Shown in pieces: positions 47,730 to 60,297 of a stretch of DNA of 64,000 nucleotides. The stretch lies in contig JACPDH010000050.1 of assembly GCA_016184115.1 (NCBI GenBank), positions 1,701 to 65,700 on the forward strand, in the 5' to 3' direction. Position 1 is the stretch's first letter. The number at the start of each line of letters is the position of its first letter. The notes beneath the pieces are model-generated. The model was not told the DNA's origin, did not search any database, and saw nothing but the letters and a program-made list of their open reading frames with translations. Source of the stretch: Acidobacteriota bacterium. GTDB lineage: Bacteria; Acidobacteriota; Thermoanaerobaculia; Gp7-AA8. The translations under genes and the position numbers were made by a program.

Positions 47730-48215
47730 ATGATTGAACAGAAGACGGAAATCGCTCCTATTGTCGTGAACACAGTCGTCAACCTCTCCGCATCCGAGGC
47801 CTTCAAGCTCTTCACCGACGGGATGGCGGAATGGTGGCCGCTCCAGTCGCACTCGGTTGCTCCCGGATCATCGAAGACTTGTGTCTTCGAAGCGAAGGAG
47901 GGGGGCGAGATCTACGAAGTTGCTGCGGACGATGAGCAGCATCTCTGGGGTACGGTCGAGGAATGCGCCGAACCGGAGAGCATCGCCTTCAGCTGGCACC
48001 CAGGCCGCGAAGCGGCGACAGCGCAGCAGATCGAAGTGCTCTTCGATGCCGATGGCGACGTCACACACGTGGAGCTGGTCCATTCGGGCTGGGAGAGCTA
48101 CGGTGAGGGCGCAGAGGAAATGCGCGATAACTACGACGGTGGCTGGCAGTACGTACTCGGCGAGTGCTTCCGCAGCGCGGCGGCGAGGGCGGGAACGCTG
48201 GACGCTGAGCGCTGA
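47730..48215 (+). CDS. SRPBCC/AHSA1-like (START-fold) protein
   Basis: V.N.V.NLSASEAFKLFTD....WWP and WG.V.E..P...IAFSW pattern of Aha1/BPI-like SRPBCC proteins. Confidence 0.7.
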   Translation: MIEQKTEIAPIVVNTVVNLSASEAFKLFTDGMAEWWPLQSHSVAPGSSKTCVFEAKEGGEIYEVAADDEQHLWGTVEECAEPESIAFSWHPGREAATAQQIEVLFDADGDVTHVELVHSGWESYGEGAEEMRDNYDGGWQYVLGECFRSAAARAGTLDAER

Positions 48216-48484
48216 ACGCGAAACGCTGAACCGACTGGTCGCGCGAGTGCTACGGGAGGCGCCGCTCGTGCAGACTGTCGTCCCGAGCCCGCGAAGCGGG
48301 AGAGGGACCTCTCAGGCTGGTGCGGTCAGGCCACGGGGCAGTAGAAGCGCGCGGCTCAAGTTCACGATGGTAGAAGGCTGCGAGGTCCTTCGTCGCTCTT
48401 CCGCTTCGCGAAGTCGCTCCTCAGGGCGACCGGGCAAGCGGGTTGCGCATGAACCTGCAGCAGCGCGGCGTTACAGGTTCGCGG

Positions 48485-52300: not shown

Positions 52301-52604
52301 GAAGGTGCCGCGCGCAGGCGACGCGCGCCGTTGCCACGTCTTCAGGTGCGACGCGATATGCGGGTGAGTCGCGATTCGATGGCCAGCGAGGATCGTCGTC
52401 CATCGTCGCGTCGATGTCGGTCAGCGCCTCGCGGATTCTGTCTGCGATCTCCGCCGCGGCCTTTTCGGTGAAGGTCGTGAGGACGATCCGCTCGGGATCG
52501 GCGTCGGGATCGCGCAGCAGCAGGTCGAGCACGTGGCGGACGATCGTGGTCGTCTTCCCTGTACCGGCTCCCGCCTCGATGACGCGGTTGGCGCGCGCGG
52601 TCAC
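49374..52604 (-). CDS. addA: AddA-like UvrD/Rep helicase-nuclease
   Basis: Walker A AGAGTGKTTT, UvrD motifs (FTEKAA, DEFQDT, VGDPKQSIY, TVHGSKGLEF) and a C-terminal PD-(D/E)XK motif (VVLDYKSG). GTG start at 52604 overlaps the addB stop (GTGA). Confidence 0.8.
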   Translation of the reverse strand: MTARANRVIEAGAGTGKTTTIVRHVLDLLLRDPDADPERIVLTTFTEKAAAEIADRIREALTDIDATMDDDPRWPSNRDSPAYRVAPEDVATARVACARHLQQIDRLRSQTIHSFCQSLLRLYPIEAGLPAQFRIIEGYEKNRVLDEIWSDWLEEELSATADPGWIGEWTTLFRQFAKLDSIREEVFELSSRAELLRDEELTLGDPGVLIGSLRAMLAVVCELRADPLGKVPREALDAAQWLRTHEPPASDSIGDWLEWSRPFEKLLDLLSFQKGPRTYTGRAELQQLRGTDGKEGKRPSPFALLRSHRVGEALREVAVRFATFRERAKEELGAVDFDDLLTLSAALLDDPRVLAQVRARYDHIFVDEFQDTDRVQAKIVDLLARESAGNLVPGRVTVVGDPKQSIYAFRSADPETYRATVEGFVEAGATKEFLGGQFRSAPRLVAAINAMFGVLLAERERDPNVVHPVYQPLEARREDGDEDGPVVRILLSHDSESDATDDEAAAMAEWIARDLAVRPGALSRYAILPRKNKPIAAIAAALAARGIASVTQSAGSLLEQPAIVDLMATLRAVAHPFDLAARVSAARSSLFAITDDEIGAHHVACERECACIWSAFEARLDAWREVARRSSVGDVIDFVLAETDVAATASLLRDAGSRLSHFDRIREIAVSYDRTSGGSLAQFVDDLAVRREEEVESEPNLADHDADAVRIMTVHGSKGLEFDTVLLPDLSSQVGGGSRPAFATAEPKRLVMTGSAATVSSGEERPGHDDATLASVMSDRMSGETDRLFYVAVTRAASRVVFVTHPGKSSQKDQNFLKRLRLCLCIDKGQLPDHFPDAPGESIESLAIGGQSIEVAFERCAAPADAAEPSRFANDDARAIVDAHSAPSSITDALCAALRPPPSEPDRLAAEVVEQRLAAARYRERGSMLHRVLERWDGDAATLAPLVEALRVEAALGANDAAIVRDRVVALCASDNWQWLSSIETLGREVVIHVAKGGAVEELRIDRLLRDGDQLVVLDYKSGRADEWRLEKDKSQVRRYCEIVTDLAGEPCRGLLWYVSADTERMIEARDPEFSS

Positions 52605-55564
52605 GCCGAGCCTCCGCGGAGAACGTCGAGCACTTTTCGCTGTTCGCCTGCCTGCACATGCCGTTCGCGGCACCAGTGCCGAATGAGACAGTACTTGCAG
52701 GCATCGATTGACGGGACGGCAGGGAAACGGCCGTCCATCGCTGCGCCGACGAGCGTATCGAGCACGCCAGTCAGCGTCTCCTCGACTGCGCCGAGATTGA
52801 ACGAGAACTTTTCTGGTTTCGCCTCCGGATCGCGCAGTGGCAAGATCCGCGCGCTGACCTGCGCTGGATCGAGACCGAAGACCCGCCTAACGACGAGCGC
52901 ATAGATCGCGGTCTGCAGATGTTCGCCAGCGGCGATCTTCTTCTCGAGGTCCTTCAGATGGTTGCCTTTGCCCGACTTGTAGTCGACGACGCGAAGGCTT
53001 CCGTCAGTGCGACGATCGATCCGGTCGATCCTCCCGCGAACGCCGATGGCAACGCCAGCGGCATCGATCCGAGCCGCGGAGTCGCGACTGTCGATCTCCT
53101 TCTCGTACTCCTGCGGCAGCCAGTCGCCTTCCGCGAGCTGCCGCATGTCGGAGCGGACGAGCTCCGCGAGCGAGGCAAGCGTCTCGGCTCGTTCGATCGC
53201 GCGGAGTGTGCGATTCTGCGGCGGAGTCTTCGCGTCCAGCTCATCGAATGCACGTCCGACCTCCTCCGCGAGACGGGCGCGAAGCGCGGGGGAGAGAGCG
53301 TCGGCCGTCGCCGCTGCGAAGTCGGAGCTCGCGAGAGAGCGGTAGAAGCGCTCGAGGATCAGGTGGTCGAGCGTTCCCTTCTCGCGCGACTCGATTGCGA
53401 TTCCGGCATCGGGCTCCTCGAGCTCTCTCGCGCCGATGAGTGCCGCGAGGAAGAAGCGCTGCGGACACTCACCGAGCTGCTCGATGATCGACGGAGAGAT
53501 CGAAGCGAAGAGCGAGCGTACGCGTGCCTCGAGCGCGCTGCCGGGTGCCAGATAGCCGTCAAAAGGCGTATCGCCTCCATGCATCGCCGCGAGCTGCAGT
53601 TGGCGGACGAACTGCGGCGTTGGGTGCGCGAGGAGCTCGCCGGCGCGGCGCTCCGAGGCGTTCTGTGGCCCGGCAGGCGGGGTGTGACGAGTACGAAGCC
53701 ACTTGCTGAAATCGTGTAGGATCTCGCGTCGCTCCGTCGGGAGGTGATCGATCGCGAAGTCCTTGAGCATCGCCGACGGGCGAAGCGCCTTGCCGACGCC
53801 GTCTGCCGCGGGGAACGAGAAATGGATCGACCCACGGGCGCTCGCAACGAGCGATTCAAAGAGGAATCGCTCTTCCTCGCGCCCATCGCCGACGGTGCGG
53901 ACGCCTAACCGCACCCGGTCGGAATCGGTGAGGAGAGGGTCGTCGACGCGGCGCTGGGGGAGCTTGTCGTGCGTTGCGCGCAGCACGAAGAGGTGCTCCG
54001 CGGTGCGCCCGCGAAAACGCATCACGTCGCCGGCCCAGATTGCCGCTGCGTTCTCGTCGCGGCCGAGCTCGCCCGAGCCGTCGATTGCGCGCCGTACGTC
54101 GTCGGCGTCGAGGCGCGACGCGGCAAACGGGTCACGTTCGAAGAGCGAGGCGACACGTCGCAGTCGGATCGCTGATGCGACGTCGTCCTCGGTCTCCACT
54201 TCGAAAAGGTTGATCCATCGCTCGATCTCCTCGGCCCAGGCGGAGCCGCGCAACTGCGTCGACGCCTTCTTCGTGAGGCGTGCGAGGCGCTCGACGAGCA
54301 ACGCGTAGCCGAGAAGATCGCCGTCAGGCCCAGGGCGCTCGCTTCCCGTGTGATCGGATATCGCGATCGCCCGAACTTCTTCCGCACTCGCACGCGCGAT
54401 CTTTGCTCTCCGTGTTGCACGCTCGAGCCGGGAAAGCTCCGGGATCGTGCCAAGCGCACCGGGGCGCACGCCGCTCCGCACGACTTCCATCACATCGCGC
54501 CGCTGCATGCCACCGCGGGCGATCCGAAGCAGGGAGAGTATGCCGCGGACGATCCTGTTGCCGGCCAGAGGAGGGCCCGGCGTGCCGCGAAAGCTGAGTC
54601 CGAAGTCGTTGCCCGCTCGTTCGATCAGCTCGAGATCGGTCGTGTCGGCCGAACGCATGACGACGGCGCAGGACGACGATGGCACACCCGCATCGAGCAG
54701 GCGCTTGATCTCGCGGCAGACTTCACGAATCTCGCTCGCCGGCGAACGATAGCTCCGAATGTCCCAGGCCGGCTTGGCGGACTCGGCCGCAGCCGCACTC
54801 ATCCGTGAAACGGCGTGCGCCGAGAACGCCTCGATGAACGGCCTGGCATACGACGATGCCGCTGCCTTGCTGCCTGCCGGCGCTTCGAGCGGTGCCGGTA
54901 TCCACACCGAATCGACCCGACCCGCTGCTGCAAGCGTTCGAAGCAGATCGAGCTGCGCCTCGGTTGCATCGTAGAAGCCGAAAACGATCTGCGGAGCGAC
55001 GAGCGCTCCCGCGCGAATCCGCGCCGCCGCTTCAGTCAGCGCGTCGGCCTCGACGGTTGCGCCCGCGTCAGAGAGGAGCGACTCGTAGCGCTTCCAGACG
55101 GCGAGAGCCGCAACGAGTCGATCGCGATTGTGGAGTCCCTTGTGCTTCGTGATCCGTCGCGAGAGCTCGGCGAGCGACACGCCGCTGTCGCGCACGTCGC
55201 GATGCGTGCGAAGCAGCATTGGAGCCGCGCCGTGGATCGACGAGAGATCGCCGCCCGCCGATCGCAGCGCAAGCTCCATCGCCAGCGACGCCTCCGTGCT
55301 TTCCGCCAGGCGGGGATAGATCCCCCCGTCGTTGAGGACGCGCAGCGCGAACTGCTCGACCTGGAGTGCGCGCAGCCCTGCGATCGCTCCGCCGTCGCCG
55401 ATTGCCCTGCGCGCTACTTCTTCCGCGGCCGAGCGCGACGGAACGATGATCTCGACCGGCTCTCCGGGCCGCGCGCCGGGTTGCTGCGCCGCGATCCGCG
55501 CGCCGAGCGCCGCGGCGATCTCGGCGTATGTGCCGTGGTAGATCGGCGCACCGGTCGGAAACAT
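52601..55564 (-). CDS. addB: AddB-like PD-(D/E)XK nuclease subunit (no Walker A; Fe-S Cys cluster)
   Basis: 987 aa upstream of and coupled to addA. C-terminal nuclease motif VVDYKSGKG. Cys quartet GECPQRFF...CKYCLIRHWC. No GxxxxGK[ST] motif found. Confidence 0.7.
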   Translation of the reverse strand: MFPTGAPIYHGTYAEIAAALGARIAAQQPGARPGEPVEIIVPSRSAAEEVARRAIGDGGAIAGLRALQVEQFALRVLNDGGIYPRLAESTEASLAMELALRSAGGDLSSIHGAAPMLLRTHRDVRDSGVSLAELSRRITKHKGLHNRDRLVAALAVWKRYESLLSDAGATVEADALTEAAARIRAGALVAPQIVFGFYDATEAQLDLLRTLAAAGRVDSVWIPAPLEAPAGSKAAASSYARPFIEAFSAHAVSRMSAAAAESAKPAWDIRSYRSPASEIREVCREIKRLLDAGVPSSSCAVVMRSADTTDLELIERAGNDFGLSFRGTPGPPLAGNRIVRGILSLLRIARGGMQRRDVMEVVRSGVRPGALGTIPELSRLERATRRAKIARASAEEVRAIAISDHTGSERPGPDGDLLGYALLVERLARLTKKASTQLRGSAWAEEIERWINLFEVETEDDVASAIRLRRVASLFERDPFAASRLDADDVRRAIDGSGELGRDENAAAIWAGDVMRFRGRTAEHLFVLRATHDKLPQRRVDDPLLTDSDRVRLGVRTVGDGREEERFLFESLVASARGSIHFSFPAADGVGKALRPSAMLKDFAIDHLPTERREILHDFSKWLRTRHTPPAGPQNASERRAGELLAHPTPQFVRQLQLAAMHGGDTPFDGYLAPGSALEARVRSLFASISPSIIEQLGECPQRFFLAALIGARELEEPDAGIAIESREKGTLDHLILERFYRSLASSDFAAATADALSPALRARLAEEVGRAFDELDAKTPPQNRTLRAIERAETLASLAELVRSDMRQLAEGDWLPQEYEKEIDSRDSAARIDAAGVAIGVRGRIDRIDRRTDGSLRVVDYKSGKGNHLKDLEKKIAAGEHLQTAIYALVVRRVFGLDPAQVSARILPLRDPEAKPEKFSFNLGAVEETLTGVLDTLVGAAMDGRFPAVPSIDACKYCLIRHWCRERHVQAGEQRKVLDVLRGGSA

Positions 55565-55602
55565 GAAGGTGATTGTAAACGCGATCGAAACGCGGCAAGT
55601 CA

Positions 55603-55812
55603 GTGCGGAATGCGGAGTGCGGAACGCGGAATGCGGAGTGCGGAATTCGGAGTGCGGAGTGCGGAACGCGGAGTGCGGAGTGCGGAACGCGGAACGCGAA
55701 ACGCGAAACCCGAATCGCGGAGTGCGGAGTGCGGAACGCGGAACGCGAAACGCGAAACCCGAATCGCGAAACCCGAATCGCGGAATGCGGGATGCGGAGT
55801 GCGGAATGCGGA
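55603..55812. repeat. 30-unit heptanucleotide tandem array (RYGCGGA/ACGCGAA variants)
   Basis: Exact 7-nt periodicity for 210 nt, including a 49-bp higher-order repeat (55673-55721 versus 55722-55770, one mismatch). Starts 38 nt upstream of the addB start codon. Confidence 0.9.
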
Positions 55813-55893
55813 GTGGGACGCGGCGAGAATGCTACCTGGTTGGCTGCTCCTGCGCCGTTGGTTTCACGCCAGGCTCTGTTCGGGGCCCTTCAT

Positions 55894-55956
55894 TTCGCAT
55901 TCCCCGTTTCGCGTTTCGAATTCCGCGTTTCGCGTTTAGCAATCGGCATTCCGCAC
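55894..55956. repeat. 9-unit inverted heptamer array (TTCGCGT/TCCGCAC variants)
   Basis: Reverse complement of the unit types at 55603-55812, so the two arrays form a long potential hairpin. Ends 33 nt before the vanZ-like ATG. Confidence 0.85.
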
Positions 55957-55989
55957 TCACTTCTCGCGCCTCAAGTACAATCGCCGAGC

Positions 55990-56466
55990 ATGGCCCGCAC
56001 AGTTCGAACGGTCACAATCAGTCGTCCGACGACGATTGCACTGCTCGTCTTCGCCACCGTCGTGATCGCATTGATCACGCTTTGGGCGTCGGGAAAGGCC
56101 TACGCGAAGGTCGATCCCGTGCCGTTTCACGACCTGCGACTGCTGGGTGACAAGCTTGCCGAAGGTCCGGTGCCGTTTCCGACGTTCGTGGCGCTGATCT
56201 CGCCGATGATCCTCAACATGCTCCTCTTCATGCCCTGGGGATTCCTGGCATTCATCGCGCTCGACACCCCTGCGCGACCGGCGCTGCAAAGCTACCTGTT
56301 GACGATCCTGCTCGCGCTCGGGCTCAGCTTCGCCGTGGAGGCGACGCAATACTTCCTTCCTGACCGGGTAACCGATGTGAACGACGTGATCTGGAATTCG
56401 GCCGGGGCGCTCGCGGGCGCCTTCTTCGGACATCTGCGCAAGCGGGTGCGCGTCGCATTCGAGTGA
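55990..56466 (+). CDS. VanZ-like membrane protein
   Basis: Four TM helices with FMPWGFL and EATQYFLPDRVTDVNDVIWNSAGALAG motifs. Confidence 0.7.
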   Translation: MARTVRTVTISRPTTIALLVFATVVIALITLWASGKAYAKVDPVPFHDLRLLGDKLAEGPVPFPTFVALISPMILNMLLFMPWGFLAFIALDTPARPALQSYLLTILLALGLSFAVEATQYFLPDRVTDVNDVIWNSAGALAGAFFGHLRKRVRVAFE

Positions 56467-57570: not shown

Positions 57571-57660
57571 CTGAGGTGAGAGGTTAGAACGGCGAACGTT
57601 GAATCCAGAAGCCGGGCCTTTCTGGATTCAACGTTCGTCGTTCTAACTTCTCACTTCAAG
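57571..57660. repeat. 90-nt palindromic repeat element (second copy of the GTTAGAACG...TTGAATCCAGAA family)
   Basis: Arms 57571-57610 and 57620-57660. The only three substitutions are G (left) opposite T (right), giving G.U pairs in a + strand RNA. Lies 18 nt after the AAA+ gene stop. Confidence 0.8.
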
Positions 57661-58684: not shown

Positions 58685-58689
58685 CGAGG

Positions 58690-58720
58690 GAGTGCTGAGT
58701 GCTGAGTGCTGAGTGCTGAG
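58690..58720. repeat. 4.4-unit heptamer array (GAGTGCT)n
   Basis: Perfect 7-nt tandem repeats starting 6 nt after the ftsY stop codon. Confidence 0.9.
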
Positions 58721-58860
58721 TTTGGCGAGTCTTCCGGGCGAAGCAAGAGAAAAGAGAAGAGATTCGAGTTGCGTCGCAGCGTGGCGCCTCGTCGTAGGTA
58801 GGTCGACCTCGTTCAAATCTCATTACTGTTCTCTTGTCTCTCGCTCCGGCACCGGTTACA

Positions 58861-58919
58861 ACTCAGCACTCAGCACTCAGCACTCAGCACTCAGCACTCA
58901 GCACTCAGCACTCAGCACT
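58861..58919. repeat. 8.4-unit inverted heptamer array (ACTCAGC)n
   Basis: Perfect repeats that are the reverse complement of (GAGTGCT)n. Ends 7 nt before the EamA-family ATG. Confidence 0.9.
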
Positions 58920-58926
58920 ACGTCCG

Positions 58927-59923: not shown

Positions 59924-59967
59924 CTACGGATGCCTGCTTTGACCTTCGGCCTCTCTCCTGCTTTGAC

Positions 59968-60297
59968 CTATGACCTTTGACCTTCGTCCTGAATCACCAG
60001 CTTCTTGTCCTCCGCGACCGGCCCGTCGCCCATCTCTCCTTCGTAGGCTCGCTTGGCCGACTCGCGGTCGAGGTGCGAATAGACCTCGCCGGACGGGTAG
60101 TGGATCATGTTAGGTCCGTGATCGCAGAGGTCGAGGCAGGAGACCTTGCAGACTCGGACGGTGCCCTTGCGCCCCTTCTCGCGATTGAGATCCTTGAGCG
60201 TCTCCTGGATCCGCTCGCCCCGCTCCTCGCCGCGCTCTTCCTTGTTGCAGCGGCCGCCGATGCAGACGAGGAAATGGTGCTCGAACTTGTATTTCAT
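59968..60297 (-). CDS. thioredoxin-like [2Fe-2S] ferredoxin
   Basis: HFLVCIGGRC...VSCLDLCDHGPN Cys pattern. Confidence 0.75.
   Translation of the reverse strand: MKYKFEHHFLVCIGGRCNKEERGEERGERIQETLKDLNREKGRKGTVRVCKVSCLDLCDHGPNMIHYPSGEVYSHLDRESAKRAYEGEMGDGPVAEDKKLVIQDEGQRS

Follow-up and report, generated by a model that had tools for sequence, protein, structure and literature searches.

Heptanucleotides are reported to be the most abundant class of long simple-sequence repeat (SSR) in many bacterial genomes, and polymerase slippage has been proposed to account for them (Mrazek 2007, as related in PMC4679880). The genomes of Xanthomonas campestris and X. axonopodis contain approximately 186 and 183 arrays of (GGGAATC)n, respectively, with 2 to 26 units per array (Rehm et al. 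2015, PLoS One, PMC4692102). Between 89 and 93% of these arrays are intergenic, their mean distance from the upstream open reading frame (ORF) is 28 nt, and they are under-represented in divergent intergenic regions. About 70 to 75 convergent inverted pairs per genome are capable of forming stem-loops. The positions of the arrays are kept between species while their length and sequence vary; the arrays are transcribed, and no regulatory role has been found for them (PMC4692102). In this study we analyzed an element of this kind from an Acidobacteriota bacterium (GTDB class Thermoanaerobaculia). The element occupies positions 55603 to 55956 of a 64,000-nucleotide stretch, referred to here as the window (GenBank assembly GCA_016184115.1, contig JACPDH010000050.1, positions 1,701 to 65,700 of the forward strand), and lies between an addB-like gene and a gene for a VanZ-family membrane protein.

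The initial annotation of this DNA, made from the sequence alone, had recognized inverted heptanucleotide arrays in the gap and knew of no equivalent in this kind of genome. Given that heptamers are, by the account in PMC4679880, the commonest long SSR class in bacteria and that Xanthomonas alone has some 186 intergenic arrays, about 70 of them as inverted pairs (PMC4692102), that view is not supported. The kind of element is already known from Xanthomonas, cyanobacteria, and Beggiatoaceae, and 55603-55956 is an analogue in another phylum. We conclude that it is probably an unusually large member of a palindromic heptamer SSR family typical of its lineage, tolerated between two compact promoters, and that its proximity to addAB is probably incidental.

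Structure of the inverted arrays at 55603-55956

The left arm of the element (55603-55812, + strand) is composed of exactly 30 heptamers in a single register with zero indels, and the strict 7-nt periodicity over 210 nt described initially was thus borne out. The six unit types that had been listed are all present (GTGCGGA, 10 copies; ATGCGGA, ACGCGGA, and ACGCGAA, 4 copies each; ACCCGAA, 3 copies; TCGCGGA, 2 copies), but the list was incomplete, as three singletons (TCGCGAA, ATTCGGA, and ATGCGGG) bring the number of types to nine. The arm is purine-rich on the + strand, with the consensus RYGCGGA, and GGA is present in 23 of the 30 units. Analysis with Tandem Repeats Finder gave a period of 7, 29.9 copies, a score of 160, and a match of 75%, reflecting the imperfection of the units. 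When periods from 4 to 12 were tested, 226 windows reached 30 or more self-matches out of 42 at period 7, and 0 did so at each other period. The 49-bp duplication described within this arm was also recovered (Table 1), and this block pair shows that multi-unit duplication has occurred.

The right arm (55894-55956) carries nine units that are the reverse complement of the left-arm type, as had been annotated, although they are degenerate. It is pyrimidine-rich on the + strand; read as the reverse complement, its units are GTGCGGA, ATGCCGA, TTGCTAA, ACGCGAA, ACGCGGA, ATTCGAA, ACGCGAA, ACGGGGA, and ATGCGAA, and the outermost of these mirror the outermost units of the left arm. The locus therefore consists of head-to-tail heptamers beyond chance length in noncoding DNA, in the addB/vanZ gap, just as its sister elements (see below) also lie between genes. 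The two arrays are of complementary type, near each other, and in convergent orientation, as in the inverted pairs of Xanthomonas.

The folding calculations that had been proposed were carried out relative to dinucleotide shuffles. As RNA, the + strand of the element folded at -212 kcal/mol (z = -5.9) and the - strand at -183 kcal/mol (z = -4.9); as single-stranded DNA, z was -4.0. The ability to fold into a long imperfect hairpin, as suggested initially, is supported by these values. A cruciform in duplex DNA, the other structure suggested, is unlikely because the arms are only 72 to 78% complementary (over 66 to 81 nt) and are 96 to 226 nt apart. No Rfam family reached its gathering score anywhere in the window; at relaxed thresholds, only sub-threshold miRNA-precursor models were found, reflecting generic long hairpins. 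A CRISPR array was ruled out, since the 7-nt units are contiguous and without spacers, compared with repeats of 23 to 50 nt separated by unique spacers. Readings of the unit as a LexA box or a Chi-like site were dropped on inspection by eye, as spacing and sequence did not fit and the unit is not common to other genomes.

Palindromic heptamer arrays in the window and in relatives

Wider scans for heptamers, of the kind that the initial annotation had proposed, identified two more palindromes in the window as well as arrays in relatives and in metagenomes. The two palindromes occupy the next two intergenic regions and have the same handedness as 55603-55956 (Table 1). The nearer one (57573-57657) starts 20 nt past the stop codon of an AAA ATPase gene, and its arms comprise five heptamers that differ from one another but all end in GA (GGTGAGA, GGTTAGA, ACGGCGA, ACGTTGA, and ATCCAGA). 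Both mismatches in its stem are G.U-compatible solely on the + (sense) strand. The second (58685-58926) contains perfect arrays, (GAGTGCT) x 4.6 at 58690-58721 and (ACTCAGC) x 8.4 at 58861-58919, around a center of 139 nt, in turn an imperfect palindrome with degenerate heptamers in it. The EamA ATG follows 7 nt beyond its last full unit.

A scan of reference genomes with AddB placed the window among the metagenome-assembled genomes (MAGs) of Thermoanaerobaculia (Acidobacteriota), with a best match of 69% identity. Heptamer arrays were present at eight of the nine addB-homologue loci, most of which are labeled Thermoanaerobaculia, and were usually organized as nested palindromes. Their units are specific to the genome (GCAGAAG, GAATTCA, GAACTCA, GCCAGAA, GGGGCTA, and GAACGGA). 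A metagenome scan for (GAGTGCK)3 returned at least 120 contigs. Among the matches listed for that heptamer, the only one scanned in this way, contigs L011 to L130 range from 32 to 72% G+C and come from soils, sediments, peat, and mats. (GAGTGCK)n probably occurs in several phyla.

The family is polar with respect to both its arms and the neighboring genes. The purine-rich arm came first in 24 of 28 detected inverted pairs (p = 2e-4), or in 25 of 29 when 55603-55956, missed as a pair by the scan, is counted. Gene calls at the metagenome loci were crude longest-ORF calls, and the following context figures are therefore approximate: among the 17 pairs with both neighbors called, 11 lay between tandem genes, 5 between convergent genes, and 1 between divergent genes, to which 55603-55956 adds a second divergent case, and the median distance from an array edge to the neighboring stop codon was -2 nt (n = 25). 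Unpaired arrays near a stop codon, again approximate because of the same calls, were purine-rich on the sense strand of that gene in a ratio of 34:13 (p = 0.003).

No sequence is conserved across the elements, and their centers are unrelated; the center of 55603-55956 likewise has no similarity to those of the other elements. Orthologous elements at two addB-homologue loci, L004 and L006, allowed turnover to be followed. These elements can be aligned through their flanks; within the arrays, they differ by indels of 7 to 16 nt and by unit substitutions. L004 carries GAAGCCA/TGGCTTC, compared with GAAGGCA plus GAAGTCA/TGCCTTC plus TGACTTC in L006, so that the arms covary and do so in mirrored order. 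Unit number and unit sequence therefore turn over while the complementarity of the arms is kept, and the copy-number variability that had been postulated holds for this kind of element. In the nested two-unit elements of the same loci (L004, 7260-7480; L006, 9900-10080), an outer (GGGGCTA)n/(TAGCCCC)n pair surrounds an unpartnered inner (GGCAGAA)n array, and the layers seem to have come and gone independently of each other.

Units on the purine strand can mostly be rotated to end in GA, both in the window and in loci L002 to L008 (GTGCGGA, GTGCTGA, AGGCAGA, ATTCAGA, ACTCAGA, and ACGGAGA). The same is true of ATCGGGA in Xanthomonas and of TAACTGA in Beggiatoaceae, and it may merely reflect purine richness. 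Elsewhere in the window, a weak unpaired array (48193-48231; Table 1) is followed, in a convergent intergenic region, by a long imperfect hairpin that is not heptameric (48290-48318/48375-48410). Degenerate heptamers at 59940-59990 (CTTTGAC/CTATGAC, 3.4 copies) overlap the 3' end of a gene on the - strand (59968-60297) and, like the family in general, are purine-rich on its sense strand.

Table 1. Coordinates of the element, its flanking genes and margins, and related features of the window
Feature	Position	Strand	Remarks
addB-like gene	52601..55564	-	987 aa; PD-(D/E)XK nuclease domain; Pfam PDDEXK_1, E = 4e-34; orthologues in Thermoanaerobaculia MAGs; left flank
addB-proximal nonrepeat margin	55565..55602	-	38 nt; TACAAT (55577..55572), then CACCTTC, then ATG
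Higher-order repeat	55673..55770	+	Two tandem 49-bp (7-unit) blocks starting at 55673 and 55722; 48/49 identical
Unique center	55813..55893		81 nt; small local hairpins
vanZ-proximal nonrepeat margin	55957..55989	+	33 nt; TACAAT (55976-55981), then CGCCGAGC, then ATG
VanZ-family membrane protein gene	55990..56466	+	158 aa; Pfam VanZ, E = 7e-19; right flank
Sister element 3	57573..57657	+	Near-perfect palindrome; stem of ~40 bp; purine arm first; z = -8.7
Sister element 2	58685..58926	+	Occupies the whole space between the ftsY stop codon and the EamA start codon; z = -8.4
Unpaired weak heptamer array	48193..48231	+	GAACGCT, 5.6 copies; overlap with the 3' end of the upstream ORF as called (+ strand, 47730-48215)

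Flanking promoters and origin of the element

The addB-like gene, which is followed by a gene for an AddA/UvrD-type helicase-nuclease, and the vanZ gene run divergently, each away from the element. In their longest form, the ORFs of addB and addA share 73 nt (52601-52673), and the called GTG start of addA is probably too far upstream. An exact-sequence look-up of the VanZ protein returned no record. The gaps between the arrays and the two ATG codons (38 nt to that of addB at 55564 and 33 nt to that of vanZ at 55990) had been given correctly in the initial annotation, which went on to place both promoters in or across the array. Inspection by eye, together with a TANNNT scan, located a TACAAT box 7 to 8 nt ahead of the ATG in each margin, with no Shine-Dalgarno sequence; a sigma-70 consensus scan of 55400-56100 gave no match. 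The vanZ margin partly mirrors the addB margin, and the minimum free energy fold pairs 55568-55577 with 55976-55985.

The same layout is seen upstream of addB in relatives. L001 has TAAAAT-CACCGTC-ATG, and its contig starts about 30 nt upstream of the ATG, within heptamer-like sequence; L002 has TATAAT-N8-GTG, and its array ends about 45 nt upstream. In L004 and L006, TAGAAT is found 12 nt before the addB start. TANNNT boxes (TACAAT, TATAAT, and TAAAGT) 7 to 9 nt before start codons that lack a Shine-Dalgarno sequence also occur upstream of 18499 (+) and 49156 (-), and the pattern suggests that mRNAs in this organism may be leaderless or have very short leaders. Because TACAAT sits in the nonrepeat margins, with the same layout at addB in L001 and L002, the putative -10 boxes would be outside the arrays, and only the -35 or upstream region would touch them. 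The initial placement of both promoters in or across the array is therefore not supported; the arrays would instead give way to nonrepeat DNA just where the core promoters start. Judged from these motifs, addB and vanZ would thus have compact, probably leaderless promoters. For annotation, this means that both promoters are probably very short or leaderless and are pressed against the array.

Members of the family share a layout in which a purine-rich array, a short unique center, and a complementary pyrimidine-rich array follow one another, and their arrays change by whole units or multi-unit blocks. We propose that the arrays grow and shrink by slipped-strand mispairing and unequal exchange, the explanation usually given for the excess of 7-nt repeats in bacteria, and the arms may be corrected against each other by intrastrand template switching, by selection for pairing, or by both. 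Because members normally abut stop codons where operons end, with their purines on the sense strand, they may serve as transcript-end hairpins that end or protect the 3' end of the upstream mRNA. The copy at 55603-55956 cannot end the flanking transcripts, because addB and vanZ diverge from it. At this locus, repeat expansion may instead have filled all of the DNA that two back-to-back promoters leave unconstrained, and the element would be a spacer or at most an upstream modulator. An intrinsic terminator was considered here and rejected: both genes point away, and no U-tract comes after either arm. A single terminator-like match was found at the locus; it lies inside the center and is no better than in shuffled sequence.

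Several observations weigh against this explanation. Passive slippage alone leaves the single handedness of the family unexplained, as it does the recurrence of arrays upstream of addB in the window, L002, L005, and L001 (there as a heptamer-like contig end). Classical intrinsic termination is not established for the family. A U-rich tract follows the 3' arm in 7 of 26 pairs, compared with 3% in controls; this excess is driven by a few genomes, and the tract is absent from all three elements of the window. A strand-specific test for RNA-level selection, comparing G.U with A.C mismatches, gave 3 versus 2, most stem mismatches being transversions between unit variants. The crude gene calls behind the context figures count here as well. 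Lastly, none of the public RNA runs holds the region, so that we infer both where the promoters lie and that transcription does not cross the element.

The handedness, the purine bias of the sense strand, the placement at stop codons, and the covariation of the arms could alternatively be signatures of a dedicated polar process, and we give this reading an outside chance. In one version, the elements would constitute a widespread, unrecognized class of hairpin "punctuation" at operon borders, built from heptamers and serving bidirectional termination or insulation, in Acidobacteriota and beyond. In the other, a repeat-adding polymerase would extend both 3' ends at a broken intergenic site, which would give rise to purine-first inverted pairs and to nested layers.

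In the hmw promoters of Haemophilus influenzae, 7-bp repeats alter expression according to unit number. The element could by analogy be a contingency locus, in which the number of units tunes or switches addB, vanZ, or both through promoter geometry or upstream contacts, but we consider this unlikely. The arrays do adjoin the -35 region of both putative promoters, unit number varies between related genomes at orthologous elements, and heptamer repeats upstream of recF and recO in Nostoc modulate expression (bioRxiv 10.1101/2022.06.06.494920). Against this, the arrays are located neither between -35 and -10 nor between the putative promoter and the ATG, and imperfect units (75% match) lower the rate of slippage. 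The flanking genes are housekeeping and membrane genes rather than surface antigens, and the family is found at the borders of unrelated operons, for the most part behind stop codons. The Xanthomonas counterparts, moreover, had no regulatory role that could be found (PMC4692102). A phase-variable promoter SSR of the hmw type was accordingly rejected on three counts: the imperfect units, the position of the arrays upstream of the putative -35, and the unrelated functions of the genes.

It is comparably improbable that the element acts at the RNA level, whether as a structured 5' leader formed by the ~400-nt hairpin, with addB, vanZ, or both transcribed from a promoter on the far side of the arrays, or as an independent noncoding RNA such as a GGA-rich protein sponge. 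The folding of both strands far better than shuffles, the frequency of GGA in the left arm, and the polarity of the family relative to transcription are all compatible with such a role. The -10-like boxes adjoin both start codons, however, and this layout is conserved in L001 and L002. Only the generic, sub-threshold Rfam models mentioned above were matched. Arrays in relatives are devoid of GGA (GAAGGCA and GAATTCA), so there would be no common sequence-specific partner, and, as already noted, public RNA runs do not hold the region.

A nonautonomous mobile element with heptamer arrays as terminal inverted repeats, either a miniature inverted-repeat transposable element (MITE) or one resembling repetitive extragenic palindromic (REP) sequences and REPINs, would likewise be an intergenic palindrome with inverted ends and many copies. 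We judge this very unlikely. The centers are unrelated even within one genome, and the borders lack a direct target-site duplication, the flanks continuing the palindrome there instead; both points argue against a transposable element. In addition, arm length and unit type vary continuously, and orthologous positions are kept between L004 and L006. A MITE was rejected in view of the missing conserved body and the missing direct duplication at the borders. REP sequences and REPINs are families of conserved palindromes of ~20 to 40 nt associated with a RAYT transposase, and here the elements have no sequence in common.

The initial annotation also raised the possibility of a recombination hotspot placed beside the recombination genes. 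An AddAB-linked signal of this sort, be it a Chi-like array, a site of programmed breaks, or a hairpin substrate, would agree with the occurrence of arrays directly upstream of addB in the window, L002, L005, and probably L001 and directly downstream of addA in L001, L004, and L006. The unit sequence is wholly different between these genomes, so there is no common recognition sequence, and upstream of addB, L004 and L006 are free of arrays. The same elements are found at similar density beside unrelated genes, including the AAA ATPase gene, ftsY, the EamA transporter gene, and many unrelated operon borders in relatives. We saw no evidence of a functional tie between the element and addAB, and such a link is extremely improbable. 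The import of the locus itself is small in this respect, and it warns against inferring a special relationship between the repeats and addAB.

The DNA sequence at the locus was corroborated by independent assemblies. Four groundwater metagenome runs contain the region almost word for word. At 100% identity, independent Logan contigs from run X2 cover the whole of 55540-56010, and with it the point where the two 49-bp blocks meet. All 31-mers of 55540-56010 were found in independent contigs, with the junctions at roughly single- to double-copy depth. The right arm, the center, and vanZ sit together on one independent contig, another contig of 2,980 nt spans exactly from this element to the next, and a related low-depth strain from a second study breaks at the same borders. 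In the source metagenomes, heptamer 31-mers reach 10 to 70 times the depth of the flanks, and further loci are visible in which the same arms surround another short center; the repeat is therefore multicopy in the community. Short-read contigs stop inside the left array, and for this reason the absolute unit count (30, with two rather than more 49-bp blocks) is not independently proven, although the local sequence is supported; across runs X1 to X6, the Logan contigs stop in the array. That the element is an assembly artefact, arising from a collapsed or expanded repeat or from a chimeric join, would fit these contig breaks and the unverifiable number of blocks, but it is hardly credible in view of the identical 31-mers and junction depths, the contig joining right arm, center, and vanZ, and the matching borders in the related strain. 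MAG contigs and short-read Logan contigs repeatedly begin or end at or beside heptamer arrays (L001, 1-47; L002, 1-320; L005, 1-430; L010, whole; runs X1 to X6), and the arrays appear to break assemblies of this lineage systematically.

Comparison with described repeats

Within the literature searched, where unrelated uses of "STRR" and "heptamer" swamped part of the results, no report tied heptamer repeats to Acidobacteria or Thermoanaerobaculia. In Thermoanaerobaculia, palindromic heptamer arrays seem to make up a large and so far undescribed part of the intergenic DNA.

Classical terminators, in which an A-tract, a hairpin, and a U-tract follow one another, have the same handedness as the family. 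Like REP sequences, bacterial interspersed mosaic elements (BIMEs), extragenic palindromes, and bidirectional terminators, the elements are intergenic hairpin repeats that follow genes, with the A/purine side 5' and the U/pyrimidine side 3'. They differ from REP/BIME sequences and terminators in having no conserved sequence, in the tandem heptamers that make up their arms, and in the restriction of a U-tract to about a quarter of pairs.

The short tandemly repeated repetitive (STRR) sequences of heterocystous cyanobacteria are defined by specific units; the units at 55603-55956 are different, and the host has its relatives among Thermoanaerobaculia MAGs. The parallel that the initial annotation drew with heptamer repeats of cyanobacteria was apt as far as organization is concerned, since those of Calothrix and Nostoc are also dispersed intergenic tandem arrays of heptanucleotides (according to the citations in PMC4692102 and to the preprint bioRxiv 10.1101/2022.06.06.494920). 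They have other unit sequences and belong to another taxon, and Nostoc has few inverted pairs. The TAACTGA direct repeats of marine Beggiatoaceae resemble the present family in being abundant intergenic heptamers with a strong polarity relative to genes (MacGregor 2015, PMC4679880). In contrast to it, they consist of one fixed unit in 2 to 6 copies, lie immediately upstream of start codons, and are inverted in only 1 of 170 cases (PMC4679880).

The closest likeness is to the Xanthomonas arrays. In both, 7-nt arrays are intergenic, form inverted pairs, and keep their positions between related species while length and sequence vary. In both, they also tend to lie close to where the upstream ORF ends and seldom between divergent genes, as seen here in the median of -2 nt and in the 1 divergent pair in 17, although 55603-55956 is itself divergent. 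The G-rich arm in Xanthomonas has been described as convergent, which we read here as purine arm first. Handedness and stop-codon placement are therefore common to the present family and to the still unexplained repeats of Xanthomonas. Any common explanation would have to account for the accumulation of 7-nt palindromic arrays at the borders of operons in phyla far apart, for their handedness and stop-codon placement, and for the upkeep of arm complementarity.

The two groups also differ in several respects. The units described here vary by genome and even within one element, in nested layers, and they occur in the phylum Acidobacteriota. The copy at 55603-55956 is larger (30 units), is asymmetric (30 versus 9), and is situated in the disfavored divergent context. 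The units carry GG at most, in place of GGGANTN or tracts of three to four G residues, and no G-quadruplex is expected. With units of this composition, the element is therefore an analogue of the Xanthomonas repeats and not a member of that repeat family itself.

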